From assembly GCA_964397465.1 (NCBI GenBank), contig CAYNIC010000011.1, positions 3,503 through 67,502 on the forward strand: a DNA stretch of 64,000 bases, written 5' to 3'. Origin of the DNA: an uncultured Rhodospirillales bacterium (GTDB lineage Bacteria > Pseudomonadota > Alphaproteobacteria > JAWKYA01). Below the pieces are notes generated by a model. That model searched no databases. It saw only the letters and a list, made by a program, of their open reading frames with translations, and was not told the origin of the DNA. The translations under genes and the position numbers were made by a program. Positions 29,887-57,739 of the stretch are shown here, piece after piece; positions within the stretch are counted from its first letter, which is position 1; the number at the start of each line of letters is the position of its first letter.

Positions 29887-31335
29887 TTAGCGGGCATCCA
29901 CGCCAATCGCTTGGGTAAGCGAGGTAAAACCATCCCGGGCCAGCAGCGCCGAAACCTCGGATTTCAGGCGCTGAACCAGCCCCGGCCCCTGATAAACCAG
30001 GGCGGTATAAAGCTGCACCAGACTGGCGCCGGCCCGGATTTTCGCATAGGTATCGGCCCCGCTGGCAATCCCGCCGACCCCGATCAACGGCAGCTTGCCC
30101 GCAGTGTCGCGATGAACGGTGCGTAAGAGTTCGGTCGATGGGGCGAACAAGGGTTTGCCGCTAAGACCGCCCTGTTGCGACGCGTGAGAACTGCGCAAAA
30201 ACGAAGGCCGGTCGACGGTGGTGTTACTGATGACCAAGCCATCGGCGCCGTTGCCATCGAGGGCGACACTGATGATGCCGTCCAAGGCGGCGCGGCTTAG
30301 ATCCGGCGCGATCTTGATCAGGATCGGCACGGTTTCGCGCAGTTTCACCTGACGTAACGCGGTCAAAATCGCGCGCAGCTGCGTCTCGCCCTGCAGGTCG
30401 CGGAGGCCCGGCGTGTTGGGCGACGACACATTGATCACGGCAAAATCAACCAAGGGGGCGAGCTGGGTAAACACGGTCACGTAATCGCCCACCGGATCGG
30501 CGGTGTTTTTATTGCAGCCGATATTGACCGCCACGGGACGGCGAATTTCTTTATACTGCCGCATCTCGGCAAGACGGCTTGAGGCCGCTGTGGCGCCGTG
30601 ATTGTTGAACCCAAGACGATTGATCAGGGCGTGATCTTCGTTCAAGCGAAACATCCGCGGCCGCGGATTGCCCGGTTGCGGTTTCGGCGTCAAGCCGCCG
30701 ACTTCGATGAAGCCGAAACCAAACCGCTCCATCGCCGGCACGACCCGCGCATCCTTATCAAATCCGGCGGCAAGACCGATCGGATTGGTGAAACTTTTTC
30801 CCCACACCGAGATCGCAAGATTGGCCGGATCATCGGGCGGATCGGTGCGCCAGGGAAACAATCCGGTCTCCAGCAGACGAAGCGTCAGCCGATGAGCGGT
30901 TTCAGGCGCAAGACAGCGCAGCCAGGTTGTCGCCGTACCATAGATGTCGAAGGATAATGCCGCGTCATCGTTCATCTTCAGCGGCGGAAAAACATGCACA
31001 CCATCGGGACCCAGCGGCAAAGGCTCAACCTTGATCACCGCGGCGGGTGACAGCGGACCATAAAGATGGGGGAACAGATCGCCGCCGCGGGACGATTCCC
31101 ATTTTAACGCCGAGCCTAAACTTGGCGCATTCACCGTCAGCAGCAGAAGATCTTTTTGTCCGGCGCGATGTTTCGCGGCGCTGACTTTAATTTGTACCGC
31201 GGTGGAGAAATGGATAAAGCCGTCGCGTATGTCGTCGGGCGACCCGCGATAAGGCGCGCCGCTTGCGACAGCCGCACGCCATTCCGCCTCATGGGCCATG
31301 TGATAGATGAGCTGGGGTGCGGAAGATGAAGTCAT
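29887..31335 (-). CDS. pyrD: DUF952 domain fused in frame to quinone-dependent dihydroorotate dehydrogenase
   Basis: N-terminal ~120 aa match DUF952 (DGFIHFSTA...KWESSRGGDLFPHLYGPL). The remainder is class 2 PyrD (LAPETAHRLTL..., GLAAGFDK, GFIEVGG, NISSPNTPGLR, IGVGGI). No stop codon between the two parts. Confidence 0.85.
   Translation of the reverse strand: MTSSSAPQLIYHMAHEAEWRAAVASGAPYRGSPDDIRDGFIHFSTAVQIKVSAAKHRAGQKDLLLLTVNAPSLGSALKWESSRGGDLFPHLYGPLSPAAVIKVEPLPLGPDGVHVFPPLKMNDDAALSFDIYGTATTWLRCLAPETAHRLTLRLLETGLFPWRTDPPDDPANLAISVWGKSFTNPIGLAAGFDKDARVVPAMERFGFGFIEVGGLTPKPQPGNPRPRMFRLNEDHALINRLGFNNHGATAASSRLAEMRQYKEIRRPVAVNIGCNKNTADPVGDYVTVFTQLAPLVDFAVINVSSPNTPGLRDLQGETQLRAILTALRQVKLRETVPILIKIAPDLSRAALDGIISVALDGNGADGLVISNTTVDRPSFLRSSHASQQGGLSGKPLFAPSTELLRTVHRDTAGKLPLIGVGGIASGADTYAKIRAGASLVQLYTALVYQGPGLVQRLKSEVSALLARDGFTSLTQAIGVDAR
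31267..31310. repeat. Direct repeat copy A (functional 5' end of the DUF952-pyrD gene)
   Basis: About 39 of 44 positions identical to 32317-32358 in a hand alignment with 2 single-nt gaps. Confidence 0.75.
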
Positions 31336-31440
31336 GGGTGTTTTCTATCTAGTCCTCAGGGCAAAGGGCAAGGGTTCAATAGGCAGCTTGGCTTTTCTCG
31401 GTATAGGCCGTATACTCGTATCACGGGTAATGGTGATGAT

Positions 31441-32250
31441 ATGAAGTTTTCATTTTTTACGACATCCGTTTTGGCAGCAACTCTATGGCTGTCTATGAGT
31501 GCAGCAGCACAGGCTCAAGCCCCGACGCCGCAGGAATACATTAAGCGTGGTTTTACATACAACGGCTTCACCCGCAATCCGCATGCCCGGGAACCGTGGA
31601 CGGGACTTTACGCCGATGAGTTGCCGCAACCGACACCGGGTGACGTTTGGCTGACCTTGGGGTGGAGCAAAAAGCAAACCTCCAGTACCTGCATTGGCGA
31701 AACCACGACGCCTTTATGCACCCTCGATACCTTTCTTGCCTGCCTTATCCGCGATGACGGCCGACTTTGCGCCAAGGCGGAGGGAACGAAACCAACCCGT
31801 CGCTGGTCAGGACCACCCCCTTATGCGCCTTATCCATCCCAGACTCCTTACCCGGCTTATGCGCCTTATCCCCGCACCGGACTGATGCGGTATAAAGTTG
31901 CCTCGGTTGCGCGGATTACGGCTGAAACCGCCGCCGAATTTCAAGAACAAGATTCAAGCCACCAAGAAAAATCTGGCGATATTCAGTTACGTATTGATTG
32001 GGAAATGTGTGGCCGCGCCGATCGCAATGGTCATCTTTCCGATTGTTGCCAGCCGCCCTACTCTAGTAGTTTTGTAGTTCGCCGCCAGACTTATGGTCAT
32101 TGGATCTTGGTGCGGCATGATCATCCTGACTTAAACGACCGGCTGCGATTTCACCCCGAAACCGAAGATATCCGCTGGTCAGAAGATTATTACCAAGATG
32201 CGCCTTATTGTACGGATATCAAGGCACCAATTCGGCGCCGTAAACCCTAG
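31441..32250 (+). CDS. Secreted Cys-rich hypothetical protein with YAPYP-type Pro/Tyr linker
   Basis: Signal peptide MKFSFFTTSVLAATLWLSMSAAAQA; 269 aa. No family recognised. Lies between the two repeat copies. Confidence 0.55.
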   Translation: MKFSFFTTSVLAATLWLSMSAAAQAQAPTPQEYIKRGFTYNGFTRNPHAREPWTGLYADELPQPTPGDVWLTLGWSKKQTSSTCIGETTTPLCTLDTFLACLIRDDGRLCAKAEGTKPTRRWSGPPPYAPYPSQTPYPAYAPYPRTGLMRYKVASVARITAETAAEFQEQDSSHQEKSGDIQLRIDWEMCGRADRNGHLSDCCQPPYSSSFVVRRQTYGHWILVRHDHPDLNDRLRFHPETEDIRWSEDYYQDAPYCTDIKAPIRRRKP

Positions 32251-32371
32251 CGTTTGGGTTGACGCGGTGGGGCCACAAAAAAACGGAATCTTTCGATATC
32301 GCCATCATCCGCCTTCAGACAGCCGCGCGTCATCCGCCTCATGGCCATGTGGTAGATGAATGGAGAAATCA
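32246..32371 (-). pseudogene. Frameshifted remnant of a DUF952 5' end (repeat copy B at ~32317-32358)
   Basis: The minus strand reads MISPFIYHMA, compared with MTSSSAPQLIYHMAHEAEW in the intact gene. A 1-nt deletion then shifts the frame, giving a 41-codon remnant. Confidence 0.55.
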
Positions 32372-32385
32372 TGAAAGTATGTTCT

Positions 32386-33687
32386 CTAAGGAGATCTCTT
32401 TTTCTGATCTTTGCTCTTAAACTTTAGTTTTGGCTGAGGATGGCGTGAGCCATACATCCATTTAGGGTCTATTATCAACTCAGGTTCTTTTTTGGGAGTC
32501 GCTGGTCTTGGAGGGAGAGAAAGCTGCATCGCTTTATCGCCTTGAGCAATATTTTTTAAATGATTTTTAAATAAGCTAACGTCACCAAAATAGTTTGGAT
32601 AAGCAATTTTCAGATTTGCAATCTTATCTATTTCTACCAAAACAACCTCAACCATTTTTTCATTTTCTCTCAATTCACTTTCAACCCTATTGTAAGACTC
32701 AGTAGCAGCAAGCGCTGTGTAGTAGGGGTCAAGATAGACGTAATTTGTAGCGTAATCATACTTAACAAGAAGGTGTGTTGCCTGAGTATTTTGAAGTTGA
32801 GCAGAGCTTGTTCCCTCGACTGCAAGGCTGACACCTTCCAGCAAATTAACAGCATTCAACACATGTGCTAGTTCCCTTATCTCTTCTCGGCGTTCATTAG
32901 CATTAGGTGTGTTAGGAACCGTCGGGCATTCTTCGTGTTCAGCAAACTCGGCTGACATTAATGTTAACAACCGAAGCCAGTTATGGTCGCCCTTACTATA
33001 TTTAAGTTCTTTTTTAATTATAAGACCTACAGATTCTACGGCTGTTGCCCAGGTATGTTGAAGTTTTGTTCGTATCTGAACTTCTATTTTTTTGCCATCG
33101 AAGGCCGTAGGCCGCTTTCCTTGGTAGCTAAAAATAATGTGGTGACTACGATAGCCATCATCTTTAGGTGAAACAATAAAATCTTTCTCACTGTGAAAAC
33201 TGTTAGAAAGATGATGAGTCAAAATATCGCTAATATTTTTTACGTCAGAAATACTTTTAACAATTGCTCTGCATCCGCCGATATCTTGAATCGTTTGCAG
33301 TTTTAAGCGAGTGAGCCTATTTAACTTGTCGCGAATTGACTGCATTCGTTTAAGTCTAGCCGCTACCAGGCCTTCTTGCTTATTGGCTCGTAGCAATGCT
33401 CTAATTTTACCTCGAATACTTCTCATAGGATAAGCATGAGCTTCCCGCCAGTTGTTAGCTATAAGGAAAGCATCGCGGACCTCGAAAGGTATATCGGTTC
33501 CTTCTGGGTGCAGATTTTTTACAGCAATTATTTTACCCGCCTTCTCTATATCGTTAAGCGAGAATTTAAGGTGTGGATAATCGTTCTCGTCAGCCAAGGA
33601 AGGCTCCAAATTAAGGATATCATCCTCCCAGGAAAAACACTTTTCCCGGGCATCTGAGGCTACTATAAGAAATGGTAGATTAGCCAT
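32386..33687 (-). CDS. RelA/SpoT-domain (small alarmone synthetase / toxSAS-like) protein with N- and C-terminal extensions
   Basis: ORF 32386..33750 trimmed to the ATG at 33687 after AAGGAA. Synthetase-fold motifs GGCRAIV, DGYRSHHIIF and EVQIRTKLQHTWA. No HD hydrolase, TGS or ACT region. Markedly AT-rich. Confidence 0.75.
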   Translation of the reverse strand: MANLPFLIVASDAREKCFSWEDDILNLEPSLADENDYPHLKFSLNDIEKAGKIIAVKNLHPEGTDIPFEVRDAFLIANNWREAHAYPMRSIRGKIRALLRANKQEGLVAARLKRMQSIRDKLNRLTRLKLQTIQDIGGCRAIVKSISDVKNISDILTHHLSNSFHSEKDFIVSPKDDGYRSHHIIFSYQGKRPTAFDGKKIEVQIRTKLQHTWATAVESVGLIIKKELKYSKGDHNWLRLLTLMSAEFAEHEECPTVPNTPNANERREEIRELAHVLNAVNLLEGVSLAVEGTSSAQLQNTQATHLLVKYDYATNYVYLDPYYTALAATESYNRVESELRENEKMVEVVLVEIDKIANLKIAYPNYFGDVSLFKNHLKNIAQGDKAMQLSLPPRPATPKKEPELIIDPKWMYGSRHPQPKLKFKSKDQKKRSP

Positions 33688-33724
33688 GAAATTCCTTTCT
33701 AAGAGATCAAGAATAATCCCTACC

Positions 33725-34345
33725 CTACCTACGCCCTGCATAAGGATCATGTAGAGCAGGTACAGTAACTTGTGACGTAGCGCCGCCGCCGTTGCGTTGG
33801 AAAAGTTTCTCGGCTAACCGCGCGATGCCACCGCCGTCGGGCAAGCTCAACGGGCCCGACTTATCGTGGCTGCGCTTATAGACATAGATGCCCAGAACGC
33901 CCAAAGCGACACTCCAACTGGTCGAGAGGTTGTCGAGGGCCGCAATCACCTCCACGGCAAACGCTGGTTTGATCGCGATCAGATAGGCAACCGCCCCCAT
34001 CTGTCCCAACCAGGTCACGGCGATGATATAACCAAAGGTGGGTCTCATGCGCCGCACGTAAGGATCGTCCGACGCAACCTCGCGGCGGATGGTGCGGTTG
34101 ACTTCGGTCAGTGTAACGGCATCCCGGTCGGCTTCGATCTGCGCCATGGTTTCCAGATGGCGGTTGGCCTCGTTTATTGCTTCGGGCGGAACCTCGCCCT
34201 TGCCGATGGCGTCGGTGACACGGCCTAAGGCGTCGGACGCTGCCTTGGCCAAAGGATGAGAGAGTTTACCAAGGGCAAATCCGACGAGTTTGGCAAGAAC
34301 CGGCAAGCCGATGCCGGCAAGAAGACTGGCAAACATTTTTGTCAC
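33725..34345 (-). CDS. Putative 3-TM holin (GTA/phage holin_3TM-like)
   Basis: DPYVRRMRPTFGYIIAVTW plus following hydrophobic helices resemble the 3TM holin family. GTGA overlap with the hydrolase gene (alternative ATG at 34336). Confidence 0.55.
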   Translation of the reverse strand: MTKMFASLLAGIGLPVLAKLVGFALGKLSHPLAKAASDALGRVTDAIGKGEVPPEAINEANRHLETMAQIEADRDAVTLTEVNRTIRREVASDDPYVRRMRPTFGYIIAVTWLGQMGAVAYLIAIKPAFAVEVIAALDNLSTSWSVALGVLGIYVYKRSHDKSGPLSLPDGGGIARLAEKLFQRNGGGATSQVTVPALHDPYAGRR

Positions 34346-34800
34346 TCCACATTGTTATAGAAAACATGGCGGCCGATGCGGGCCGAGGGGGTGCGGCCGT
34401 GGGACCAATAGGGGCTGATATGGCTTGCGTGGTAATGGGTGGCGCCGTTGGTCGGATCGGCCATGGTGCCGCCAAGCGCCTCGGCGGCGATGAGAAGCGC
34501 CAAACGAAACGCCGCATCGCTTTCATCCACGGTCAGTACCTTGATCCGGTTGGGATCGCCCACGTTCCAGCAGGAAAATTGATAGGCGGCAAGGCAGATC
34601 TCCCGCACCGACCGTGTCCGCTCGATCCCTTCGCGAGCCCGGCGGTTGATGATGACGGCGGCGATCGCGCGCATGCCGGCCTCGCCTTCGCTGCGCGCTT
34701 CGCCCCACAAAGTGCGGGCCAGGATGTCCCGTTCCCGCGCCGGTTCGGCCAAGGCCTGATCGATCCGCACCGCGGCGGGACTCAAAGTGCGACTCATCAT
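34342..34800 (-). CDS. SleB-type cell wall hydrolase (endolysin)
   Basis: RTLWGEARSEGEAGMRAIAAVIINRR and ATHYHA motifs of the Hydrolase_2/SleB family. Confidence 0.8.
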   Translation of the reverse strand: MMSRTLSPAAVRIDQALAEPARERDILARTLWGEARSEGEAGMRAIAAVIINRRAREGIERTRSVREICLAAYQFSCWNVGDPNRIKVLTVDESDAAFRLALLIAAEALGGTMADPTNGATHYHASHISPYWSHGRTPSARIGRHVFYNNVE

Positions 34801-35108
34801 ACGGCTCCTTGTTTGGGAAACAGGGGAACATCCAGCTTGGCTTCGATGCGCAACAGGTGCGACGTTAACCGCCGCTCTACATCCTTCAGGTAGGCGATCG
34901 AGGCGTAGGATTTCGCCACTTCCAGTTTATAGGCGGCCAAGGTCTCGCGCAGTTGCGCATCCCCGGTGTGACATTGATGACGGAGGTGATCTAGTTTCTC
35001 TTCGCCATCGCGGCGGATGCGCCAGATGAACCAGAACAGACCGGCCAGGGTCGGCAGCTCGACCGCGGTGATCCACCACAACAGGGTCTCGGGCAAAAAG
35101 TTGCTCAT
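34797..35108 (-). CDS. Membrane-anchored coiled-coil protein (possible spanin-like lysis accessory)
   Basis: ATG at 35108 overlaps the upstream stop. One N-terminal TM helix followed by a helical region. Function inferred from position only. Confidence 0.4.
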   Translation of the reverse strand: MSNFLPETLLWWITAVELPTLAGLFWFIWRIRRDGEEKLDHLRHQCHTGDAQLRETLAAYKLEVAKSYASIAYLKDVERRLTSHLLRIEAKLDVPLFPKQGAV

Positions 35109-35434
35109 AGGGATGATCCGTTTGCAGAAGGTAAGGTTGGCGCCGGTGCGTGGGTGTCGCTTTGCCAGTTTTTTCCTTCGGTGATGATGCAAGATCGGCT
35201 GGAGGTGAGGCGCGCCACGGCAACCCAACTTGCCGTCATCGGCGCGATGTAAACATCGATGGTCGTGCCCTCCGCCGTGGTGCCGCGGCCTAGACGGATA
35301 AATCCCTTGGCGGGGGCGAGGGCTTGATCAAGCTCCGCCGTCGATCCGCACCGCGGTGCTGCAAGAGTAAGCGACGGCAAGGCAAGGATCATCGCGCCAA
35401 GCGTCAGCCCGGCGATACTGTGACAGTAGCGCAT
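35105..35434 (-). CDS. Small secreted hypothetical protein
   Basis: ATG at 35434 after GAGGAG. Signal peptide MRYCHSIAGLTLGAMILALPSLTLAA. Confidence 0.45.
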   Translation of the reverse strand: MRYCHSIAGLTLGAMILALPSLTLAAPRCGSTAELDQALAPAKGFIRLGRGTTAEGTTIDVYIAPMTASWVAVARLTSSRSCIITEGKNWQSDTHAPAPTLPSANGSSL

Positions 35435-35466
35435 AAAAATTCTCCTCAAGATGGGGTTAGAAAAAC

Positions 35467-36960
35467 CTACGGTTCGAAATCGGTTGCGGCGGCGGTGTTG
35501 GTGGCGCCCGGTCGCCAATCGCGTTTGGTCCGCGGCGCAAAGGCGGCGGCAATTCGCACCGGCTCTGCTGAAATGGCGCCGGCCACCGCATCCAGGGCGT
35601 CATCGGGACGTTTGCGACTGGTCGCCGCGGGCCGCCAGTCGCGCATCTGTTGAATAAACGGTGTCTGCCACAGGCTGCGATGGGCGTATAAGGTTCCCGC
35701 CGCCAAGGGCACATCAAGCGCATCCAAAATGCGTTGGGTTTTGGGTTTGCTGCTGTGGGCTTCGACCACCACGGTTGGAATCTTCGCCTCACTCAAGGCG
35801 TGACGTAAAAGTCCGGGCAAGAACCGGCCGATGCCGTTGGTCTCGATGGTCACTGTGGGCAGATGAAGTCCGCGCAAGAATTCGGCCGCTTGGCGGCAGA
35901 GCTGCGTTGCCTCGTCGACTTGCGGCAAGGCGGTCATGTCGTGGTTCAGATAGGTCAGGCGATGGAGATAGAAATTTCCTATCGCATCGGAAAACACCGC
36001 GGCAATCACGCTGCCGTCGCCCTTTTCCGCGGCGCCAAAGGCCGGATCCCACCAACAGCTCGCCGAGACCAGTCGCGTTTGACCCAACATCAGCACCGGC
36101 ATCCGGTTGGCCTCGCTGTAAACCAACTCGCCGTCATAGGGACGCAAGCGATCGGGGTTGAGACGCGCCGCCGTGACGTTGCTGGGCCGCAGCAACATCT
36201 GCGCCGCGAACTTCGCCTCGCCGCTGCGCCGCCGCATCTTGGCAATCTCGGTTTTGCCATAGCGTTCCGGCCAGATGCTGCGGCCCCGACGATCGAGCAA
36301 CGGCATCTCCATCCGTTTGAAGTTGCCCAGAAACGGTATGTCTTCACCCAATTCGCGCCGCGCTTCGGTGGCATAGATAGAGTAATAACTGTGGGGCGTG
36401 CCGATATAGATCTGGGTTCCGCCCGGCACCAGGATATAGGGAATTTCACTCAACCGGTCGCGCAGGTCCTGACGCTTGGGCGGGGTATCGCAGGTATTGG
36501 GAACCTCCACATCATCGCACAGGATCACATCGGCCCGGCTGCCGGTGACATTGGCCGAGATGCCGCGGCCCAGCATTGACGGATCGCGCAGCTCGCCCGG
36601 TCGTTTGACCGTAAACTGATCCATCGCCCAGGACGAAGTGCGGCGCGGTTTTAATCCCTTGGTAAAGGGATGGCGCTCGATCAGCCGTTTCACATTGCGC
36701 ACCATCTTGCAGGCAAGATCGTGCTCCGCCGCCAGAACCAAGATCCGCAGCATCGGATTCTTGGTAAACAACCAAGCACAGAATAATCCGCAGATGGTCG
36801 ACTTGCCGCTTGACCGAAACGCCAGCAGTACCAGTTCATGATCATGGGCTGCCCACCGGGCCGCCAGCCACCGCGCCATGCGGAGTTGCACCCGCGGTGT
36901 GGTTTGGCCCTGATGCTCGTTCCACATCCAGACGAATTCGGGAAAGCTGGGCGCGGTCAT
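35467..36960 (-). CDS. Phage terminase large subunit
   Basis: Walker A-like FRSSGKST, Walker B-type ADVILCDDVE, and a C-terminal nuclease-like region; 497 aa. Confidence 0.8.
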   Translation of the reverse strand: MTAPSFPEFVWMWNEHQGQTTPRVQLRMARWLAARWAAHDHELVLLAFRSSGKSTICGLFCAWLFTKNPMLRILVLAAEHDLACKMVRNVKRLIERHPFTKGLKPRRTSSWAMDQFTVKRPGELRDPSMLGRGISANVTGSRADVILCDDVEVPNTCDTPPKRQDLRDRLSEIPYILVPGGTQIYIGTPHSYYSIYATEARRELGEDIPFLGNFKRMEMPLLDRRGRSIWPERYGKTEIAKMRRRSGEAKFAAQMLLRPSNVTAARLNPDRLRPYDGELVYSEANRMPVLMLGQTRLVSASCWWDPAFGAAEKGDGSVIAAVFSDAIGNFYLHRLTYLNHDMTALPQVDEATQLCRQAAEFLRGLHLPTVTIETNGIGRFLPGLLRHALSEAKIPTVVVEAHSSKPKTQRILDALDVPLAAGTLYAHRSLWQTPFIQQMRDWRPAATSRKRPDDALDAVAGAISAEPVRIAAAFAPRTKRDWRPGATNTAAATDFEP

Positions 36961-37319
36961 GACAGATCATCATCCTCGGCATCATCGTCCGGCACGGTAT
37001 CGTCGGTATCCGCCACCGCATCCCGCGCCCGGGTCAACAGCGACGCCAAGGCATCGTCGCTTTCCGCTTCTTGATGATCCACCGCCCACCGCGCCAGACG
37101 TAACAGCCCATCCAAATGTCCTAGGGCGGATTTGCACGCAGTATGATAGGCGGAAAAACCCTTGGCGGTGTTGTCGCAGGGTGCGGCGACAAACTGGGTA
37201 TAGCTGTCCAAGGCGGTGGCCAATAAAACGGGAAGATCCTGGGCGATTTTTTGCCGGGTGGACTCGAGGCCCTTTTGGGTGCGGTTTTTGCTGGAAAGTT
37301 TTGATACCGAAACTGTCAC
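36957..37319 (-). CDS. Hypothetical phage protein with acidic C-terminus (small-terminase position)
   Basis: ATGA overlap with the large terminase gene. Function suggested by position only. Confidence 0.4.
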   Translation of the reverse strand: MTVSVSKLSSKNRTQKGLESTRQKIAQDLPVLLATALDSYTQFVAAPCDNTAKGFSAYHTACKSALGHLDGLLRLARWAVDHQEAESDDALASLLTRARDAVADTDDTVPDDDAEDDDLS

Positions 37320-37354
37320 GTCATGTCCTTTCGAGGGAAAACAAAGGCAAGAAA

Positions 37355-37585
37355 TTATCGGGGCGGCAGTGTGCCGGTGATTCCAGTGGCGATTTTTAGA
37401 AACTGTTCCAGCCGCGCCTCGACCTCAGCCAATCGGGTTTCCAGGGGCAGGGAAGATGCCGGTGAAGAAGGTGATGAATCCGGCGGCGCAATGAAAACCG
37501 CCGAGGCGGTTTCGTCGTTTTTCAGGATATAGTTCTCGTCCTCCCATCGAACGCTAAGACCGCGGTTACTGTAGATATAGGGCAT
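37355..37585 (-). CDS. Hypothetical 76-aa phage protein
   Basis: ORF in the operon frame between the fibre and terminase genes. Confidence 0.35.
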   Translation of the reverse strand: MPYIYSNRGLSVRWEDENYILKNDETASAVFIAPPDSSPSSPASSLPLETRLAEVEARLEQFLKIATGITGTLPPR

Positions 37586-37594
37586 GGAACCTCC

Positions 37595-40087
37595 TTAAAA
37601 TTCGTAGCCGTTGATATCGAGCCGAAACTGAGCCGTAGTTGTGGACGACCGCCAATACACCTGCTGGGTTGTGTTCAAGATCAGACGAAACTGTCCGGCG
37701 ATCCGCCATCCATCGAAGATGGTACCGCTGGCATTCCCGGCCGCGGTGTAACAGCCGCCGGTGCCGGTGGCGTCGGCGGCAATGGCGATGGTGTCGTTGG
37801 CCGAGGCGGCGGATTGGCCGATGGTTCCGGAGACCACACCCGCGGCCGGCGGCACCGCATTGGCGATGGATTGCACCGTCCAACTGGTGATGCCGGCGAT
37901 GCCGGTAAAGATGGTTTGTGGTGCCTGAATGACGCTGCGGTCGAACTGATAAAACTTCACCAGATTTGATGCGCCGTCATTGCGCGCCGACCCGACCAAG
38001 GCCTTGTAAGTATATCCGCCGGGAAGCATCGGTGTCGTTCCCGACAAGGATATCAATCCCGCCACGGTGGAGGTCGCGGCATTGTAAATGACCCACAACC
38101 GGTACCAGGTGGCGGCGGCTTCAACGCCGCTGTCCAACCCGTTGACGCCGCTGGCGGCGATGTCGACGGTAACCGCAATGTTGCTCAGCATCATCGCGTC
38201 ACCGGCGGCGTCCTTCACCATCAGTTCATCCGCGGCGATGTCGATCTTATTGGCCGGCGACGCGGCATTGACTCCGGCTTTCAGCCGTCGCGCTTGCCCG
38301 GCAAGGGTGAGGGAATGGGTAAAACTTAAAACGCCATTACCATTGGTGCGGAGAACTTGACCGGCCAGGCCGTCGCTGCCGGGAAAAACAAGACCCTTCA
38401 GTTTGATCTTGCCGCTGCCGTTGGGTGAGAGGTCGATGTCGCCGTTCCCGGTACTGACGATTTTCTTGCCATTGACGATCAAATCCCCGCCCAGTTTTGG
38501 CGCCGGATCATCTTCGATCTTCATCAATATCCCGGGGATGCCTTGCGCGCCGGTGTCGCCTTTCATCGCCAGGACATCCCAATAGATCCCGTTGGGCGGC
38601 GTGTGATTGATATGGGCGATTTTGCAGCGATAACTGCTGCCGGCAAGGGTTGCCACATCGCCGATGACATAGGACGTTACCGCCGACCATGCGCCTTTCC
38701 AGGCCAAGGCGCCGTCATTGCCGGCAAGGCCGTCCACGGCGACCAAGGCCCATTGCGGCGTGGTTGCCGTAAGACCGATGCGGCTTGGCGTGATGCCTTG
38801 ATGATCGACGGCGGCGATATAGGTTGCGCCGCTGGCATCATGGCGGACGACATCGCCGCGTTTGTAGGATGTCGTCATTTCCCACGCGGCCATCCAAGCG
38901 AATCCAAGCTCGGTCAAGGGCAAGGGTACAACCGTAACCGACTTGCCGGTCCACACCATCCATCGTGCGGCATAGGAGGGCGACGTCAGATCAACGGGGG
39001 TGCCGCCGCCGCTGGCGTCGGTTGTTCCCGCCTGGGCGATGTCGCCGGCGGCGAAACCGCTGCCGCCCGCCAGTTGGGGATTGGCCCCGGCTTTGTTGTA
39101 AACGTATCCGTGGCTGTGGGTTGGAAGTTCCGCCAAGGTTAGACTGTGTTTCTCTTCGCCGAAACTTGCGCCCAGTTGGCGAAGAGTAAGACCGGCACCT
39201 TGTCCTGCACCGACGATGGCACGGCCGCGCAAGTCGGGAAGTTTGACTGTGTCGTGCAAAAGCCACGTCTCGCTTCCCTGGTTAGGCGGCAAGGTGCGGA
39301 GGATGGAAAACAGGTTTTCATAGGCGCCATGGGCATGATCCGCTCCGCTTGAGGCGTCGCCCAAGGTTTTGCCATCGAGCTCCAGCCATCCGTCGGGCGC
39401 CATGCCGCCAAGGAGGCCGCCGAGAAACGGATGAATGGTGCCGACCGGTATCGCCGCCGCGACCTGACTGTTAAGGGCGTTCAAGCTGGCGGTGACACCG
39501 TTTAATGCCGCGGTACTGGCGGCGCCCAAGGTGGATCGTCCCGCTGCGGGATTTCCTGCCGCCAATAATGTCTCGCCAAATCCCGACACCGCCAGGTTTC
39601 CCGGCGGGGTGGCGATAATGGCCGTGGGCCGCCCCTCCGCATCAAAGCCCAGCGCTCGCCCGGCGCGAAGCGGCGCCAAGGGCAAGGTCATATCGACGTC
39701 GCTGTCGAACGGCGCCTTGGCAAGGGCATCGCCGGTCAAAGCCTGAACCTGCTGCACGCCCAAGGTCAAACGATCCAGTTCTTCATTCACCACTGCGGCG
39801 CGAAAGGATTCGCCATCGATGAAATCGGTGGTGCGGCTGATCGGCATGGCGCGGCTGATGGTCACCCGGCATCCGGCGGGCGGCGGAATAAAAAATACCA
39901 CATCACCGCCGCTGCTATTTCCGATGCCGGTAACCGTATAGGTGTTGATCGGCGCCCATTGGTCGTTCAACGCGACCTTTAAATCATCGCCGTTCAGAAT
40001 GGGGAAGTCGTAAGCAAAGGCCGTGACGGCGCCGGTGCCCCAATGCTGAAGGCGTGGCCGGACATCGCCGATGAGAAGATCGGACAT
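37595..40087 (-). CDS. Tail fibre protein with phage tail-collar domain
   Basis: 830 aa. Collar motif ...APDGWLELDGKTL...VKLPDLRGRAIVGAG...LTLAELPTHSHG. Confidence 0.7.
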   Translation of the reverse strand: MSDLLIGDVRPRLQHWGTGAVTAFAYDFPILNGDDLKVALNDQWAPINTYTVTGIGNSSGGDVVFFIPPPAGCRVTISRAMPISRTTDFIDGESFRAAVVNEELDRLTLGVQQVQALTGDALAKAPFDSDVDMTLPLAPLRAGRALGFDAEGRPTAIIATPPGNLAVSGFGETLLAAGNPAAGRSTLGAASTAALNGVTASLNALNSQVAAAIPVGTIHPFLGGLLGGMAPDGWLELDGKTLGDASSGADHAHGAYENLFSILRTLPPNQGSETWLLHDTVKLPDLRGRAIVGAGQGAGLTLRQLGASFGEEKHSLTLAELPTHSHGYVYNKAGANPQLAGGSGFAAGDIAQAGTTDASGGGTPVDLTSPSYAARWMVWTGKSVTVVPLPLTELGFAWMAAWEMTTSYKRGDVVRHDASGATYIAAVDHQGITPSRIGLTATTPQWALVAVDGLAGNDGALAWKGAWSAVTSYVIGDVATLAGSSYRCKIAHINHTPPNGIYWDVLAMKGDTGAQGIPGILMKIEDDPAPKLGGDLIVNGKKIVSTGNGDIDLSPNGSGKIKLKGLVFPGSDGLAGQVLRTNGNGVLSFTHSLTLAGQARRLKAGVNAASPANKIDIAADELMVKDAAGDAMMLSNIAVTVDIAASGVNGLDSGVEAAATWYRLWVIYNAATSTVAGLISLSGTTPMLPGGYTYKALVGSARNDGASNLVKFYQFDRSVIQAPQTIFTGIAGITSWTVQSIANAVPPAAGVVSGTIGQSAASANDTIAIAADATGTGGCYTAAGNASGTIFDGWRIAGQFRLILNTTQQVYWRSSTTTAQFRLDINGYEF

Positions 40088-40111
40088 GAGAGTGTCTCCT
40101 TATAGAGGCGC

Positions 40112-40603
40112 TTAACGGATCAGGGATATTTGCTGAATGGCGTAGTGGGTTCCGGTGTCCAGCAGGCTGCGGCCGATGGCGTTCGCCGGCGACAAGCGAC
40201 GCTCGCGGTCCAAAATCTTGGCGCGCTGCTGCGTTTGGGCGATTGCGGCGCCGTTGTCGGCGAGGTCAGCATCCCGTTTGGCCAAGGCTTGTTCCGTCGC
40301 GTCGGCATGACGCGATTGCATCGCCTGTTGCAAGGCCGCCGTACTGCCGCCGTCATCATTGATGCCGCGCGCCGCCGCACTGGTGCGGGCGCCGCCCAAC
40401 TCGCGGCGTAACCCAAGGCGCCGGGTCGCTTGATCGGTCTCGAAGTTGTCGGCGATCAGCGAGCGTCGCCGCTGCAAGGACGCCAGTTGCTGCTGGGCAG
40501 CGAGGCTTTGCGCTTTCGCTTCGGCCCGGCGGGCGGGAAGATTCAGCGCCGTTTGGGCTGCTGTGGCGGCAAGCTGTGGAAGTAACGGGGTTGACGCGGC
40601 CAT
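40112..40603 (-). CDS. Ala/Gln-rich coiled-coil virion protein (hypothetical)
   Basis: 163 aa of low-complexity helical sequence. Start/stop junction shared with the upstream gene. Confidence 0.45.
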   Translation of the reverse strand: MAASTPLLPQLAATAAQTALNLPARRAEAKAQSLAAQQQLASLQRRRSLIADNFETDQATRRLGLRRELGGARTSAAARGINDDGGSTAALQQAMQSRHADATEQALAKRDADLADNGAAIAQTQQRAKILDRERRLSPANAIGRSLLDTGTHYAIQQISLIR

Positions 40604-42501
40604 CAGTCATTCACCTTAAGTTCGCAGTTGACGGAAAGAAGCGTGAAGGAAAAAGGATTGCTTTGGGTAATGCGCCACAGCGGTTCCAGCGCGCCGCGAT
40701 GCCAGCCCAAGGCCCGCACCGTGACATCGCCGGTATAGGCCGCCGGCGGTGAGTCAAGATTGACGCCGCCGATCGTCTGCAACGGAACCAATCTTGGTCC
40801 GCGGCCCACATCAACCATCAAGGCGGGGGTGTCTTTGATGCGGAAGGTGGCGCGGATCAGCCGCAAGGGCTCACCCTGAAGTTCTCCGTTGTCCGACGGC
40901 GGCAGGGGCTCGATGCTGTGGGTAAAGGCAAGACCTACTTCGATGCGGGTGGCGGTGGCGGCCAGAGAAATCACCCCGCCTTTGACCTTATAAAGGCCGA
41001 GCGGCCGGCCATCGGCGATGACCGTCACCCATTTGTCGTTGAGATGGGACAGCCCGCCCCAAATCGATTGGGCTTGTTCGGTTTCGCCCAACAAGGCGGC
41101 ATCACTGTTAAGTTGCGGATCAAATTTTTCGATCCGAAAATCGGCAAAACGTTTGGCCAAGGCATAGACGTCGCCGCCCACCACGGCGACGGCATGAAAC
41201 TCGCCGTCGGTTTCCAACCGCGTCCAGGCGGTGACATTCTCCGAGCGATAAAGGGTAAGGGCGCCGAGGCCGCCGTCGCTCATCACCACGTAAAGCACCC
41301 GCGACTTATCGGCGTAATCCATGTCGATCGGATCCGTCACCAGATGCGGAGCCAGCACCGAGAGGTCGCGGGCTTGGTAAGCCGCCTCGGCATCGGTATA
41401 AAGAAGTTCGCGAATTTGCCGGCCGCTGCGCGCGGCAAACAGGGTTGCGCCTTCAACCGCGCGGGGTGGTACGGTGCGATCAGGGTGTGAGCCGACGGTG
41501 GTTTGCCGTTTCGCCTGGACCGTGGCGGGAGATAACGGCTCGCCGGTGATCTGCCACTCGCCGCCGGTGGTCAAAACAAACAGCGTCAGACCGGAATGCA
41601 TCCCGCGAATGGCGTCGACCTGTTCCGACAACAATCCGAACTCGATCGCATCGTCATCCTCGCCGATGCCAAGATCAAAGTTGAACAGATCCGAAGTCCG
41701 CGACATCCAGATCCGGTTGGGGATCGACCGGGCGCCGCCGAACACCAACCGGTCTTGGGCGAAGGCGACGCTGGCGGGCCAGCCGCGATAGGGTGAAAAC
41801 GCCTGCTCGGACCAATCGGTGATGGCGGTGGTGTTGGGCAAGGACAGGGCCAGCGTCACCTTCACCGCCGTTGCCGAGGTGACCTCGATGATGGCGACAT
41901 CCTGGTTGGGCAGGCGTAAGTATGCGCCCAGCTGCGCCGGATCAAACACCGGTGCCGATGCGGTCAAGGTAATGGTGCCAGAGGTGCCGCTGGGCGTTAA
42001 GGTCACGGTATCTCCGGCGAAACGATAGAACGGATGATAGCGGCGTTTGGTTGTCGTATTGGCGACAAAGGTTAGATCCGCCAAAACCCAGGTTTGCGGC
42101 CCTAGACGGGTGAGGGTCTTTGGCGCAACATCGGGATGACAAATAAACAACGTGTCCGCACTTTGCGCCCAAGTCAGACGCTTGATCTGATCCGCCGTCC
42201 ACGGCGTGGCCACGGTGGCGATGACCGCATCATGGTGCAGGATGGTGATCTGCTGATGGGTGACGACCAACAGATAAGTCTGCTCGGCATTAAAGGCGAA
42301 ACCGATCAGACGGCCGGAGCCCGCGGCGATGGCGATATGACGCAGGCCAGGCCGGCGCGTCACGCCTCCGGTCGGCTGCACCAAAATATTGCGCAGTTTT
42401 TTTGCGGCGTTGCTGTACGACGCAAGATCGCCCCGGCCGTAAAGATCGCTCGATACTTCGCCGGCGGTGAAATTATTTTTGAGAACCCGCATGCGTCCCA
42501 T
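40603..42501 (-). CDS. Large tail/nozzle protein (T7 gp12 tubular-B position)
   Basis: ATG at 42501 after GGAGGAGG; 632 aa. Assigned by size and synteny only. Confidence 0.5.
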   Translation of the reverse strand: MGRMRVLKNNFTAGEVSSDLYGRGDLASYSNAAKKLRNILVQPTGGVTRRPGLRHIAIAAGSGRLIGFAFNAEQTYLLVVTHQQITILHHDAVIATVATPWTADQIKRLTWAQSADTLFICHPDVAPKTLTRLGPQTWVLADLTFVANTTTKRRYHPFYRFAGDTVTLTPSGTSGTITLTASAPVFDPAQLGAYLRLPNQDVAIIEVTSATAVKVTLALSLPNTTAITDWSEQAFSPYRGWPASVAFAQDRLVFGGARSIPNRIWMSRTSDLFNFDLGIGEDDDAIEFGLLSEQVDAIRGMHSGLTLFVLTTGGEWQITGEPLSPATVQAKRQTTVGSHPDRTVPPRAVEGATLFAARSGRQIRELLYTDAEAAYQARDLSVLAPHLVTDPIDMDYADKSRVLYVVMSDGGLGALTLYRSENVTAWTRLETDGEFHAVAVVGGDVYALAKRFADFRIEKFDPQLNSDAALLGETEQAQSIWGGLSHLNDKWVTVIADGRPLGLYKVKGGVISLAATATRIEVGLAFTHSIEPLPPSDNGELQGEPLRLIRATFRIKDTPALMVDVGRGPRLVPLQTIGGVNLDSPPAAYTGDVTVRALGWHRGALEPLWRITQSNPFSFTLLSVNCELKVND

Positions 42502-42502
42502 C

Positions 42503-43069
42503 TCAGCCTCCTCCAGTCCAGCCGGTAAGATCAAATCCGCCGGCGGTTTCTTCCTGGGCGTCGATCAGACGGGCGCGGCGAAATTCTTCCTCGGCGGCAC
42601 GGGCCAAGGCTTCGGCCCGGGATGAATTCTCGGTCAAAGGAATGCAGAACTCGGCCGCCAGGCGCGCGATCAGCACATGATCAAAGAACGGCGGAAAATC
42701 CGCTTCGCCGGGGCGAAAAATATAGGTCAGGATCACTTCATCGGCGTGGGCGTGAAGCCGCCGCTCGGCGATGCGGTAGGTAAGCCCGCGCCCGCGACGG
42801 CCGTTACCGGCGGAAAGGGCGCGAAGATAATCGCCGGGCAATTGAAACGCATAGGCATAGTCGGCGGGGGGCGAGGCCGCCAAGGGCGCAAGCCGCCGTT
42901 GCGCCGTGGCGAAATTCCACGGATGGGCGGAGAGCAGGGCGTCCCGCGTCGACGGATAAAGCAGGCTGGCCACCTCGGCGGCAGCGGAGCCTTCGTCAAA
43001 TCCTAAAATAGGCGCGGCGCCGATTTTCACCAGCGCTCGGGCACAAAGTTGAATGGCGCTCAGAGCCAT
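42503..43069 (-). CDS. Adaptor / tail tubular-A-position protein
   Basis: ATG at 43069; 188 aa. N-terminus MALSAIQLCARALVKIGAAPI...HPWNFA resembles podovirus adaptor-type proteins. Synteny supports the call. Confidence 0.45.
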   Translation of the reverse strand: MALSAIQLCARALVKIGAAPILGFDEGSAAAEVASLLYPSTRDALLSAHPWNFATAQRRLAPLAASPPADYAYAFQLPGDYLRALSAGNGRRGRGLTYRIAERRLHAHADEVILTYIFRPGEADFPPFFDHVLIARLAAEFCIPLTENSSRAEALARAAEEEFRRARLIDAQEETAGGFDLTGWTGGG

Positions 43070-43152
43070 GGCTCGTTGCCTTTCCCATAAAAAAGCTCCG
43101 CGGCGATGAACCATCGCCGGCGGAGCCGATCACAACAGAGAAAATAGATTTA

Positions 43153-43410
43153 TTAGTCGGTGTTCACGCTGCCGACGGCGGTCATGTCGGCGACATCGAC
43201 CGTGCCGTTCTGGCTGGAAGCGATCAGAAGAATGCCGGCGCCGCCGTTGACATTGGCGAGAATCATATCGCCTTTGCGCAGCATATCTACGGCGGGATTA
43301 AAATAGCCGTTGGTATCGACGATGTCGGCGGTATCGGTCGAGGCATAATGCCAAAGGGTAAAGCCGTTGGCATAGGCCAGCACCGAAAGGTTTCTGGCAA
43401 GATAGGCCAT
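43153..43410 (-). CDS. Small capsid-associated hypothetical protein
   Basis: 85 aa, directly downstream of the capsid gene. Confidence 0.45.
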   Translation of the reverse strand: MAYLARNLSVLAYANGFTLWHYASTDTADIVDTNGYFNPAVDMLRKGDMILANVNGGAGILLIASSQNGTVDVADMTAVGSVNTD

Positions 43411-43448
43411 GAAGATCTCCTTTATCTCTTTAAGCTAAGGGTGAAATT

Positions 43449-44273
43449 TTACGCTTCGCTGCACGGCAGGGTGACAAGACCGGTGCCATCGACCAGCACC
43501 GCGCCCAAGGACAGCGAGCAGCTGACGAACCACGCGGCCCGATCGTTGTGATAGGCGATGTCGGTGTTGACTTCCGATCCCACCGCGAGGGCAAGGGCGG
43601 TCTTGTGCCACCAATGGCACAGGCGGTGACCATTGCCGTCGAGGCCAAGGCCGGAATGGGGCATCCACAAGGTTCCCAGCCAGCGCTTGGCCTGGGTGCC
43701 GCGCCAGGGCAGATCGTCGCTGCCGACATAATCGGCATTGGCGAATTCCTGGATCATCAAGAGATCGGACCATTGTTTCCATCCCACCACGGCGTAACGA
43801 TCTCCGTCATCGGGCACATCGTTGCCGCCCAGGATGCCGAAGGCCTCCAGCACCTTTTGTTTGGTGAGACCGCCGCTAACCGTCGGAGTCAGATTGGCCG
43901 AGGTGTTCATCTGCGCCAAAATCAGCTCGTCGGTTTTGCGGCCCAAGGCATAGGCGCCGGCATTGGCCACCACCGCCCGCTCTTCGTTCTCGGTCTTAAG
44001 TTCGTCCAGGGCGTCCACCCATTCGCCGGCATAGTAATCCGACAGAAAACATTCGATCGGCGCGTGATCGATGTTCATCACCGGCACCTTGCCGTGTCGC
44101 GCTTTGGTCGAAGCGCTGCCCTTGCCGACTTTTTGAAACACGGTGGAGGCGCCTTTAACGCTGCCCTTGGCGCGAACGCAAGGGCGGAGCTTGGCGCCCG
44201 TACGCTGATAGGCTTCGTGAACTTCCTTTTCGAACTGCTTGATGAAAGCAGCATCAATGGAGGGTTTATTCAT
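43449..44273 (-). CDS. Major capsid protein (putative)
   Basis: 274 aa, positioned after the scaffold-like gene. N-terminal FIKQFEKEVHEAYQ... pattern resembles small podovirus coat proteins. Confidence 0.65.
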   Translation of the reverse strand: MNKPSIDAAFIKQFEKEVHEAYQRTGAKLRPCVRAKGSVKGASTVFQKVGKGSASTKARHGKVPVMNIDHAPIECFLSDYYAGEWVDALDELKTENEERAVVANAGAYALGRKTDELILAQMNTSANLTPTVSGGLTKQKVLEAFGILGGNDVPDDGDRYAVVGWKQWSDLLMIQEFANADYVGSDDLPWRGTQAKRWLGTLWMPHSGLGLDGNGHRLCHWWHKTALALAVGSEVNTDIAYHNDRAAWFVSCSLSLGAVLVDGTGLVTLPCSEA

Positions 44274-44394
44274 GGTGATCCTTTCAGAAAAAATAAACGG
44301 TTGAGTCCGGCCACGGGTTATCCGCGCAGGGGCGGGCTTGCAGCCGGATGAAGGAAAAAGACGGGCCGCCGCAACGGTTGTCCGTAATTAAGAC

Positions 44395-45132: not shown

Positions 45133-45136
45133 GGCA

Positions 45137-57737: not shown

Positions 57738-57739
57738 TC

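Follow-up and report, generated by a model that had tools for sequence, protein, structure and literature searches.

What does the single AT-rich gene at the lysis end of a T7-like particle locus encode, and how did it come to lie there? The question is raised by a window of 64,000 nt from contig CAYNIC010000011.1 of an uncultured Rhodospirillales bacterium. An original prediction, made from the letters and a list of open reading frames, had read the gene as a fused defence protein resembling the toxic small alarmone synthetases (toxSAS). The product is very probably a single-polypeptide CapRel-type toxSAS, that is, a toxin-antitoxin protein for abortive-infection phage defence.

Gene organization and annotation

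The gene is located on the minus strand (32386..33687) and encodes 433 aa plus a stop codon. The ORF list has a single minus-strand frame in this region (32386..33750), in which an in-frame ATG at 33687 gives the 433-aa protein (MANLPF...). A Shine-Dalgarno-like AAGGA (33693..33697, minus strand) can be read off the sequence 5 nt upstream of this ATG; the longer alternative start would give a 454-aa protein and overlap the holin stop codon. In the source annotation (JGI 3300013121, contig Ga0172278_1319), the gene is represented by a 319-aa 'RelA_SpoT' protein that begins at M115, and the N-terminal 114 residues are missed. The practical outcome of the present analysis is thus a clean annotation, in which this truncated protein becomes a full-length fused CapRel immune sensor.

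The gene has a GC content of 40.2%, compared to 57.7% for the remainder of the window, and a GC3 of 33.9%, compared to approximately 70% in the neighbouring genes. The fall in GC content sets in within approximately 30-40 nt of the holin stop (33725), and its end coincides with the CapRel stop codon. The motifs GGCRAIV (residues 137-143), DGYRSHHIIF (177-186) and EVQIRTKLQHTWA (202-214) are all present in the 433-aa protein, as are FSLNDIEKAGKII, NNWREAHAYPMRSI and AYPNYFGD, and the description of an AT-rich ORF with RelA/SpoT motifs (40% GC in surroundings of 58%) is thus confirmed.

Between the holin stop and the gene lie 37 nt, as predicted, and between the gene and the ATG of a remnant of 41 codons lie 13 nt, where approximately 14 had been predicted. 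Neither gap has room for a partner ORF, in agreement with the original prediction, and no separate antitoxin gene of the kind found in bipartite toxSAS systems is adjacent: the 41-codon ORF on the downstream side is itself a remnant of DUF952. This ORF had been taken for the 5' remnant of pyrD. It is indeed a remnant, but one derived from a fused DUF952-PyrD gene, of which it retains the 5' end of the DUF952 part.

Family assignment

The only Pfam match of the protein is RelA_SpoT (PF04607; residues 111-215, E-value: 5.3e-20). This profile match upholds the synthetase-fold motifs that had been noticed by eye, and HD, TGS and ACT domains are absent, as had been stated. Among PDB chains searched with phmmer, the protein is most similar to 7ztb_A and 9erv_A (E-value: 5e-33), with residues 39-377 aligned to chain residues 11-366. 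The aligned part is nearly the whole of the 373-aa CapRelSJ46, so that the regions at the N and C termini, originally described as unknown, fall within a recognized protein. BLASTP comparison with the SJ46 protein itself (AMR59976.1) gives an E-value of 4e-37 with 31% identity over 365 columns, and identity to CapRelSJ46 is 31-35% across alignments. SJ46 is also the best match among 50,697 GenBank phage records, and no mycobacteriophage (PhRel-type) record is found among the 19 phage hits in this set.

Two profiles of wider collections are matched: PADLOC PDC-S33, a single-gene candidate for phage defence (342 of 349 profile positions, E-value: 2.4e-104) and PHROG 4773 (E-value: 3.5e-82). Both stop near residue 381, such that the C-terminal tail lies outside them, and both are computational bins without an assigned function. 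A literature search for PDC-S33 turned up no paper, and PDC systems go unmentioned in the article on the PADLOC web server. Because these profiles are matched nearly end to end, the gene family can be regarded as already catalogued as defence-associated and phage-borne. The gene is a new but ordinary CapRel member that overturns nothing in current understanding. The family comprises approximately 1,050 clusters (50% identity) at E-values of 1e-30 or lower, and the closest homologue is approximately 50% identical. CapRel family membership and domain architecture are established for this gene, together with its single-gene organization and horizontal acquisition, and this well-supported membership extends the family to a divergent, largely alphaproteobacterial subclade.

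Domains, conserved residues and predicted structure

The protein can be divided into four regions, all encoded on the minus strand. Residues 1-35 (33583..33687) are a variable, non-conserved N-terminal extension that is predicted to be disordered (in alignment A1, an occupancy of 0.49 and a top-residue frequency of 0.34; pLDDT 35-48). Residues 36-260 (32908..33582) are the toxSYNTH toxin domain, consisting of N-terminal helices and the RelA/SpoT nucleotidyltransferase core (Pfam; pLDDT >90). Residues 261-382 (32542..32907) are the fused antitoxin/sensor, which on the basis of AlphaFold (AF2) secondary structure and Foldseek is made up of anchor-1 helices, a pseudo-zinc-finger domain (pseudo-ZFD) and anchor-2. 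Within it lies the autoinhibitory YXXY motif Y363-P-N-Y366 (32590..32601; in AYPNYFG), which aligns with Y352 and Y355 of SJ46 and whose autoinhibitory function has been described for CapRelSJ46 (PMC9712102). Residues 383-433 (32389..32541) form a basic, proline-rich C-terminal tail (D407-x-x-W410, R415 and a Lys-rich end) with conserved islands in alignments A1 and A2.

All of the mapped catalytic and autoinhibitory residues are kept bar one. The ATP-binding arginines R111 and R140 (R79 and R116 in SJ46) and the G-loop tyrosine Y179 (SJ46 Y155) are invariant in 67 homologues. P364, N365 and Y366 are invariant among the homologues, and conservation of Y363 is 90% or higher. The interface residues V349, L350, A362 and A109 (SJ46 V338, L339, A351 and A77) are conserved as well. 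The sole departure at the interface is E352, which replaces SJ46 A341 and is invariant in the subclade. As an A341K substitution at this position renders CapRelSJ46 constitutively toxic, the details of autoinhibition may differ in the window protein. Conservation peaks in the core of toxSYNTH and around YXXY, with anchor-1 and the pseudo-ZFD being more variable; more variable sensor regions have already been reported for CapRel (PMC9712102, PMC11578894).

The AF2 model has a pLDDT of 83.9 and a pTM of 0.79. Beyond the core, it contains helices at residues 263-289, strands at 305-311 and 316-322, a helix at 325-339, a strand at 346-352 and helices at 356-382, so that the modelled topology of the C-terminal domain is beta-beta-alpha-beta followed by the YXXY motif. 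The top Foldseek matches are again 7ztb and 9erv (E-value: 2e-20, TM 0.68, approximately 357 columns), and the next are RelP and RelQ (E-value: 2e-9), which match the synthetase core only. The structure prediction that had been proposed as a check thus returns the CapRelSJ46 fold. The sensor of CapRelSJ46 is a cysteine-free pseudo-zinc-finger with a beta-beta-alpha-beta arrangement (PMC9712102), and cysteine is absent from the window protein after residue 254 (residues 261-433 being cysteine-free). Judged from the model, the C-terminal domain is a CapRelSJ46-type pseudo-zinc-finger sensor. The original suggestion that it may be a sensor of a different type is thus not borne out, and the main proposal, a toxSAS and an autoinhibitory sensor fused in one polypeptide, is supported by the full-length match, the YXXY motif and the modelled fold.

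Comparison with characterized synthetases

CapRelSJ46 (Salmonella phage SJ46, AMR59976.1, PDB 7ZTB/9ERV; compare the fused CapRelEbc and CapRelKp) can be aligned with the window protein end to end. The two share the ATP-binding arginines, the G-loop tyrosine, YXXY, most interface residues and the cysteine-free pseudo-zinc-finger, and both are foreign cargo adjoining phage-derived genes. Unlike CapRelSJ46, the window protein has a non-conserved N-terminal extension of approximately 35 aa and, after the last helix, a tail of approximately 50 aa with D-x-x-W, whereas SJ46 stops 7 residues past the aligned region. The hosts also differ, being an alphaproteobacterium here and an enterobacterium for CapRelSJ46, as do the carriers: the gene described here lies beside a non-mobile, domesticated particle locus, and that of CapRelSJ46 in an active P1-like phage. 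PhRel/ATphRel (mycobacteriophage Phrann), the unfused CapRel/ATcapRel and FaRel2/ATfaRel2 have the same toxSYNTH fold and likewise rely on a pseudo-ZFD that blocks the ATP donor site (PMC11782079), but in these systems toxin and antitoxin are encoded by two genes. RelQ/RelP (YjbM, YwaC) and RelV have only the RelA/SpoT nucleotidyltransferase core in common with the window protein; they are conserved chromosomal (p)ppGpp makers without a fused antitoxin domain.

The comparison with these synthetases bears on one alternative, namely that the protein pyrophosphorylates nucleotides to (p)ppGpp or (pp)pApp and does not modify tRNA, either as a housekeeping enzyme (RelQ, RelP or RelV) or as a toxin of the FaRel, Tas1, Pag1B or GRel type. 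The core does match RelQ/RelP structures (phmmer against PDB, E-values from 5e-14 to 7e-9) and NCBIfam YjbM (E-value: 8.8e-17), substrate cannot be told from sequence alone, and alarmone-making anti-phage toxSAS exist (preprint 10.64898/2026.04.06.716658). The housekeeping models, however, are matched far under their cut-offs (YjbM, 61.5 bits against 320; TIGR00691 for long RSH proteins, which carry an HD hydrolase and TGS/ACT domains, 44.6 bits against 499) and reach residues 107-221 only, while the full-length match is to the tRNA-targeting CapRelSJ46. The closest relatives are thus CapRelSJ46 and PDC-S33 rather than RelV/RelQ-type housekeeping synthetases, which as closest relatives would have counted against the original prediction. 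Nor does the gene behave as a core gene: it is AT-shifted and is not conserved at the locus in related genomes, being absent from the local region of 76 related loci.

With regard to the toxic alarmone makers, the donor-blocking pseudo-ZFD and YXXY are both present, features that in the literature are specific to tRNA-targeting toxSAS (PMC11782079). No NAP, Tis1-like or hydrolase antitoxin gene is adjacent. PANGU type I (Pag1A NAP with Pag1B/GRel) is defined by an adjacent NAP gene and an acidic DNA-mimic C-terminal domain (preprint 10.64898/2026.04.06.716658), but here the gene is flanked by a holin gene on one side and the DUF952 remnant on the other, and the C-terminal region is basic and not an acidic DNA mimic. 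A nucleotide-pyrophosphorylating enzyme is therefore a very unlikely identity for this protein.

Proposed mechanism

A tRNA-targeting CapRel is the preferred reading, and the proposed model for its action draws on the biochemistry of CapRelSJ46 and FaRel2, from which we infer that the substrate is tRNA, that the protein is autoinhibited, that a phage trigger exists and that the gene confers defence. In the uninfected cell, the C-terminal region (anchor helices, pseudo-zinc-finger and YXXY) would be folded back onto toxSYNTH, with the YXXY segment placed between R111 and R140 such that the site for ATP, the pyrophosphate donor, would be blocked. Among toxSAS, a pseudo-ZFD that occludes the donor site is associated with tRNA targeting (PMC11782079). 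Upon infection, a phage protein would bind the variable surface of the pseudo-zinc-finger and anchors and hold the protein open. The open toxSYNTH would then use ATP to pyrophosphorylate tRNAs at their 3'-CCA end. Aminoacylation and translation would come to a stop as a result, and phage production would be aborted.

C-terminal tail

One of two new elements, the other being the location of the gene, is the basic tail of approximately 50 aa, which is specific to this subclade, conserved within it and without a counterpart in the characterized CapRels. It contains 14 K/R and 5 D/E residues. Among 61 IMG/VR homologues, 10 have a tail of more than 45 aa beyond the motif and 36 end within 25 aa of it. 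Its pLDDT is 49-65 in the window protein and 63-78 in homologue P0008, the tail of which is near the consensus; the AF2 model of P0008 has no secondary structure in the tail, at moderate confidence. The window protein departs from near-invariant subclade residues at positions 388-389, where EY is replaced by QL, and in WLR, which is replaced by WMY. The tail may be an extra module, serving as a tether to tRNA or the ribosome or as a second sensing surface. Together with the A-to-E change, it is a concrete feature on which a variation of CapRel autoinhibition or targeting could be based.

Locus and insertion slot

The upstream neighbour of the gene is a 3TM holin gene (33725..34345, minus strand; Pfam GTA_holin_3TM, E-value: 2.6e-11), which is the final one of the conserved genes in the T7-like particle locus and is also kept in related loci. 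Just downstream, the DUF952-pyrD 5'-end remnant (32318..32359) marks an old gene start; it forms one copy of a direct repeat of 44 nt, and a blastn search of the window against itself pairs it with 31267-31310 (88.6% identity, E-value: 2e-9). Of the 77 alphaproteobacterial loci compared, at least 10 have the T7-like locus in synteny with pyrD, and only one has the CapRel gene, with the local region of the related genomes as the part examined. A model in which the repeat copies are prophage att sites would predict a third copy of the 44-nt DUF952 repeat at the opposite end of the locus, and none was found; the model was dropped when synteny with pyrD emerged in distant genomes. A tRNA scan for an attachment site returned no tRNA genes.

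The particle locus is an old, domesticated T7-like chromosomal locus, and the CapRel gene is a later, lineage-specific insertion, a one-gene AT-rich cassette in the short slot between the holin gene and DUF952-pyrD. This location is new. Next to the lysis genes, the gene has the appearance of cargo gained by horizontal transfer. The original proposal of defence cargo on the lysis end of the locus holds for the foreign cargo, which is AT-rich and absent from the other 76 loci, but the synteny with pyrD speaks against a mobile prophage as its carrier. Flanking repeats, direct or inverted, that would mark the ends of a cassette, IS element or attC site were sought, and only short matches at chance level came up. 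An Rfam scan of the window from 31 to 35 kb and of the split-terminase insertion of L003 (introns, riboswitches) returned nothing significant.

A scan of 31200-34600 for promoters and terminators gave no more sites than shuffled sequence and none in the gap between holin and CapRel genes. As this 37-nt gap has no recognizable promoter, expression of the gene may rely on the late operon of the particle locus. It is conceivable, though very improbable, that the gene is wired to that locus as the last gene of the late/lysis operon, sensing a particle protein, for example the HK97-fold capsid encoded by the locus, or T7-like relatives that enter the cell. Under this reading, a toxin of the immune repertoire would have been taken over, either as a translation shut-off for cells that make particles or as a guard of the locus itself, comparable to LypABC.

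A related idea, in which the particle locus has co-opted the gene, co-transcribed after the holin gene, for translation shut-off or death of the producer cells and not as an independent defence, possibly triggered by its own capsid, is very unlikely. The gene follows the holin gene on the same strand at a distance of 37 nt from its stop, with no promoter- or terminator-like site between; CapRelSJ46 responds to capsid proteins of the HK97 fold (PMC9712102), and one such capsid is encoded within the locus (43449-44273). A precedent exists in the immune system LypABC, which has been recruited for GTA release in Caulobacter (PMC13236601), and one CapRel homologue is found within another podovirus-like cluster. 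The insertion of that homologue, however, splits the terminase gene, and so disrupts its locus rather than cooperating with it. The strong AT shift here points to recent foreign acquisition, and taken with the presence of CapRel in 1 of 77 loci it indicates that the gene is not an evolved part of the particle locus. Unrelated AT-rich ORFs in the same slot of other relatives argue for a permissive insertion site. That the CapRel gene is instead an inactive relic, recently acquired and decaying or never expressed in its host, is highly unlikely: codon composition extreme for the host, the lack of a detected promoter and the departures in the tail would be compatible with decay, but the frame of 433 codons is unbroken and is preceded by a good Shine-Dalgarno sequence, the invariant catalytic and autoinhibitory residues are all kept, the predicted fold is confident, and AT-richness is common to homologues in other GC-rich genomes.

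Homologues of the CapRel gene elsewhere occur in prophages, beside an IS1595 element and within the split terminase gene. A weak CapRel-like match in L052 (28% identity) was rejected; it lies inside a 717-aa ORF, 4 kb from the lysis genes, and resembles a long RSH protein. Among the AT-rich ORFs in the slot of relatives and the neighbouring orf269, PADLOC and Pfam detected no defence genes, the only domain being DUF7689. The slot between holin and pyrD in this widely conserved T7-like particle locus gathers foreign AT-rich genes, and could be mined for cargo.

CapRel gene and family assignment

The CapRel gene (32386-33687, minus strand) occupies a single minus-strand frame (32386..33750 in the ORF list). 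The ATG at 33687 has an AAGGA Shine-Dalgarno sequence 5 nt upstream and gives a 433-aa protein, the one described in the original prediction, with all of the quoted RelA/SpoT motifs. This start is preferred because the 454-aa version overlaps the holin stop at 33725. Pfam detects RelA_SpoT only (E-value: 5e-20), with no HD, TGS or ACT domain in the protein, as had been read from the sequence. The sharp GC drop noted at the gene is also real: GC content is 40.2% (GC3 33.9%) vs 57.7% in the remaining window, the holin, endolysin, terminase and pyrD genes have GC3 values of 65-77%, and the shift falls at the borders of the CapRel gene. CapRel is separated from the holin gene by 37 nt and from a 41-codon remnant on its other side by 13 nt. 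An identical protein is encoded on a 623-kb contig of JGI metagenome 3300013121 (L001, the same DNA), where it was called as 319 aa from M115 (L001 10001-10960, window 32386-33345). As a result of this start, the conserved helices at the N terminus of the toxin domain (toxSYNTH, residues 36-260) are missing from database entries. The JGI call also places a spurious antisense gene of 73 aa across the real N-terminal region.

The protein is a member of the fused CapRel family, sharing its architecture, conserved residues and single-gene organization, and is of horizontal origin. The top matches in a PDB sequence search are 7ztb_A and 9erv_A (E-value: 5e-33), described by Foldseek as the tRNA pyrophosphokinase CapRel of Salmonella, free and in complex with Bas11 Gp54. 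Residues 39-377 align with 11-366 of the chain (nearly all of its 373 residues), and this alignment takes in the N-terminal as well as the C-terminal region, both of which had been considered unknown. The best tblastn match among 50,697 GenBank phage records is a RelA/SpoT family protein of Salmonella phage SJ46 (CapRelSJ46; BLASTP 31% identity, 365 columns, E-value: 4e-37). The protein also matches PADLOC PDC-S33, a single-gene defense candidate (2.4e-104, 342/349 profile positions), and PHROG 4773 (3.5e-82). Its closest homologues are not housekeeping synthetases, whose models cover the synthetase core only and score far under their cut-offs (YjbM, 61.5 bits vs 320). An exhaustive HMMER scan places 1,052 clusters (50% identity) in the family at E<=1e-30. 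The window protein is the sole member of its cluster; the nearest representative is 45% identical and the closest sequences overall are approximately 50% identical. The few close relatives with a named source are from Reyranellaceae, Micavibrio and Acetobacteraceae MAGs.

Predicted structure and conserved residues

The AlphaFold2 model, built on a 67-homologue alignment, has a mean pLDDT of 83.9 and a pTM of 0.79. Foldseek aligns it with 7ztb and 9erv over approximately 357 columns (E-value: 2e-20, TM 0.68 on target), and with RelP and RelQ over the core only (E-value: 2e-9). The rmsd to 7ztb/9erv is high (9-11 Å), which would fit a closed model and an open crystal structure. The predicted C-terminal half comprises two linker helices, strands at 305-311 and 316-322, a helix at 325-339, a strand at 346-352, short helices around the YXXY motif and a last helix at 371-382. 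The CapRelSJ46 sensor is an antiparallel sheet of three strands, the last two separated by a helix, with anchors on both sides, and its authors termed it a pseudo-zinc-finger since the cysteines are missing (PMC9712102); the modeled arrangement in the window protein matches it. No cysteine follows residue 254. This feature had been taken to hint at a different type of sensor, an idea that is unsupported because a cysteine-free domain is the norm for the CapRel family.

Residues important in CapRelSJ46 were shown by Zhang et al. (PMC9712102). In the window protein, R111 and R140 take the place of the ATP-stacking arginines R79 and R116, and Y179 that of the G-loop tyrosine Y155. Y363/Y366 (within AYPNYFG) align with the YXXY motif Y352/Y355, and A109, V349, L350 and A362 with the interface residues A77, V338, L339 and A351. 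These positions are mostly invariant across the 67-homologue alignment, and the lone exception among the mapped residues is A341, which is E352 here (a glutamate invariant in the subclade). By top-residue frequency, the toxSYNTH core (0.72) and YXXY/anchor-2 (0.76) are most conserved, and anchor-1 (0.55) and the pseudo-zinc-finger (0.63), the specificity-determining surface in the CapRel papers (PMC9712102, PMC11578894), are more variable. This profile is consistent with the CapRel family and, with the full-length match, the mapped residues and the predicted fold, upholds the earlier view of the gene as a fused CapRel-type toxSAS.

Relative to CapRelSJ46, the window protein is extended at both ends, by an unconserved, predicted disordered stretch (residues 1-35) and by a basic, proline-rich tail (residues 383-433; 14 K/R, 9 P). 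CapRelSJ46 has no such tail, ending within 25 residues of its YXXY-type motif. At least 40 residues lie beyond YxxYF in each of the 82 close homologues where the motif could be located, with a basic end in all but one and D-x-x-W-[LFIM] in 60. The basic tail is thus, judging from these alignments, a trait of the subclade. Among 61 IMG/VR viral homologues, 36 end no more than 25 residues past the motif, like SJ46, and only 10 have a tail of more than 45 residues. The window tail differs from near-invariant subclade residues (EY to QL, WLR to WMY). Tail pLDDT is low to moderate (49-65, and 63-78 in a consensus-tail homologue), with no secondary structure predicted in either protein. No mention of such a tail was found in the CapRel literature searched. 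PADLOC and PHROGs already list the family, and the mechanism of its type member is well understood. The residual interest lies in this tail-bearing subclade, the A-to-E interface change and the site of insertion next to a T7-like particle locus that is widely conserved.

Particle locus

Upstream of CapRel on the same strand are genes for a 3TM holin, a Hydrolase_2 endolysin, two small ORFs, the large terminase and a small-terminase-like ORF, followed by an 830-aa CBM-containing protein, a gp14-like protein, nozzle and tail-tubular proteins, capsid, scaffold and portal. These form an approximately 15-kb structural, packaging and lysis locus of T7-like podovirus type (33725-48717, minus strand), with a divergent S24 repressor gene beyond the portal (47968-48717). 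No polymerase, RNA polymerase, integrase or replication genes were found in the locus. A search of one genome per species found terminase relatives (45-61% identity) in 77 loci, L006-L082, nearly all labeled Alphaproteobacteria, and many have much of the gene order in common. DUF952 and/or pyrD directly follow the lysis genes in at least 10 of the 77, as in the window (labeled variously Alphaproteobacteria, Rhodospirillaceae or Ferrovibrio); on this ground a mobile prophage was rejected. The shared order and pyrD synteny therefore indicate an old, chromosomally fixed, domesticated particle locus, which has the appearance of a GTA-like element of podovirus type passed on by vertical inheritance. 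No description of a T7-like GTA of this kind turned up in a literature search, and the particle locus is the more unusual object in the region.

Proposed function of CapRel

The CapRel mechanism, established for CapRelSJ46 and generalized by toxSAS-neutralization structures (PMC9712102, PMC11578894, PMC11782079), is the best-supported account of the window protein, and from it we infer substrate, autoinhibition, trigger and phenotype. Before infection, the C-terminal region would fold onto the toxSYNTH domain, its YXXY segment occluding the ATP site. A phage protein would bind the pseudo-zinc-finger and anchor surface (residues 261-382) and hold the enzyme open. The toxSYNTH domain would then pyrophosphorylate the 3' ends of tRNA, so that translation would stop and infection abort. 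It is conceivable that CapRel has instead been co-opted by the particle locus, given the LypABC precedent (PMC13236601) and how closely it follows the holin gene; however, only the window's locus carries CapRel among the 77, and the gene is foreign in composition. An alarmone-making SAS or toxSAS is disfavored, as the CapRel match spans the full length, the donor-site-blocking apparatus is present and there is no Tis1-like or NAP partner gene. An unexpressed relic is also disfavored by the intact frame and conserved residues.

Insertion site and mobility

CapRel is a lineage-specific insertion in the short interval that separates the holin gene from where DUF952-pyrD originally started. AT-shifted ORFs also follow the lysis genes in four relatives, 13 to 22 GC points under the locus average: L017 (12351-13604; three ORFs, 14-22 points under, one DUF7689), L023 (8803-9249; one ORF), L024 (13558-13929) and L074 (13634-14020). 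PADLOC gives no match for these ORFs. Their presence in a few relatives suggests a permissive insertion site, which may be a hotspot for foreign, possibly defense-related cargo.

CapRel homologues elsewhere are 9-13 GC points under their flanks and occur in varied mobile contexts, including a prophage early region (L005) and many IMG/VR viral contigs. In a Reyranellaceae MAG (L002 7478-10835, JBFXDA010000006.1), the homologue P0005 (51% identity) and an IS1595-family transposase lie between two alpha/beta-hydrolase gene fragments, which suggests transposon-mediated movement of a single-gene CapRel cassette. The homologue P0008 (48% identity; L003 7227-10346, GCA_964577835.1, CAZOBN010000006.1) splits a large-terminase gene, in the order Terminase_6N, CapRel, Terminase_6C, within a podovirus-like cluster that also encodes a portal and a Phage_capsid_2 capsid. 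An Rfam search gave no intron at the split, which may be a simple disruption or a targeted insertion.

The 41-codon remnant beside CapRel had been attributed to the 5' end of pyrD. It is present, but derives from DUF952: the gene is a DUF952-PyrD fusion, a single 482-aa ORF (29887-31335), and the remnant duplicates the 5' end of its DUF952 part. DUF952 and PyrD are separate neighboring genes in L023, L033, L062 and L082, and in L006-L009 the ORF ahead of the lysis genes' downstream neighbor matches the PyrD part only. A 44-nt direct repeat of the DUF952-pyrD 5' coding end (89% identity; 32318-32359 and 31267-31310) brackets a 1-kb segment, with CapRel just beyond. This segment contains a plus-strand 269-aa ORF (31441-32250; signal peptide, 53% GC) that has no match in Pfam, PHROG or PADLOC. 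The arrangement resembles a scar left by a site-specific insertion through which DUF952-pyrD gained a replacement 5' end. Elsewhere in the window is a 38-nt direct repeat (97% identity; 57703-57740 and 59308-59345, 1.6 kb apart), one copy of which lies at the 3' end of a Sel1-repeat gene and the other at that of a 5'-nucleotidase gene.
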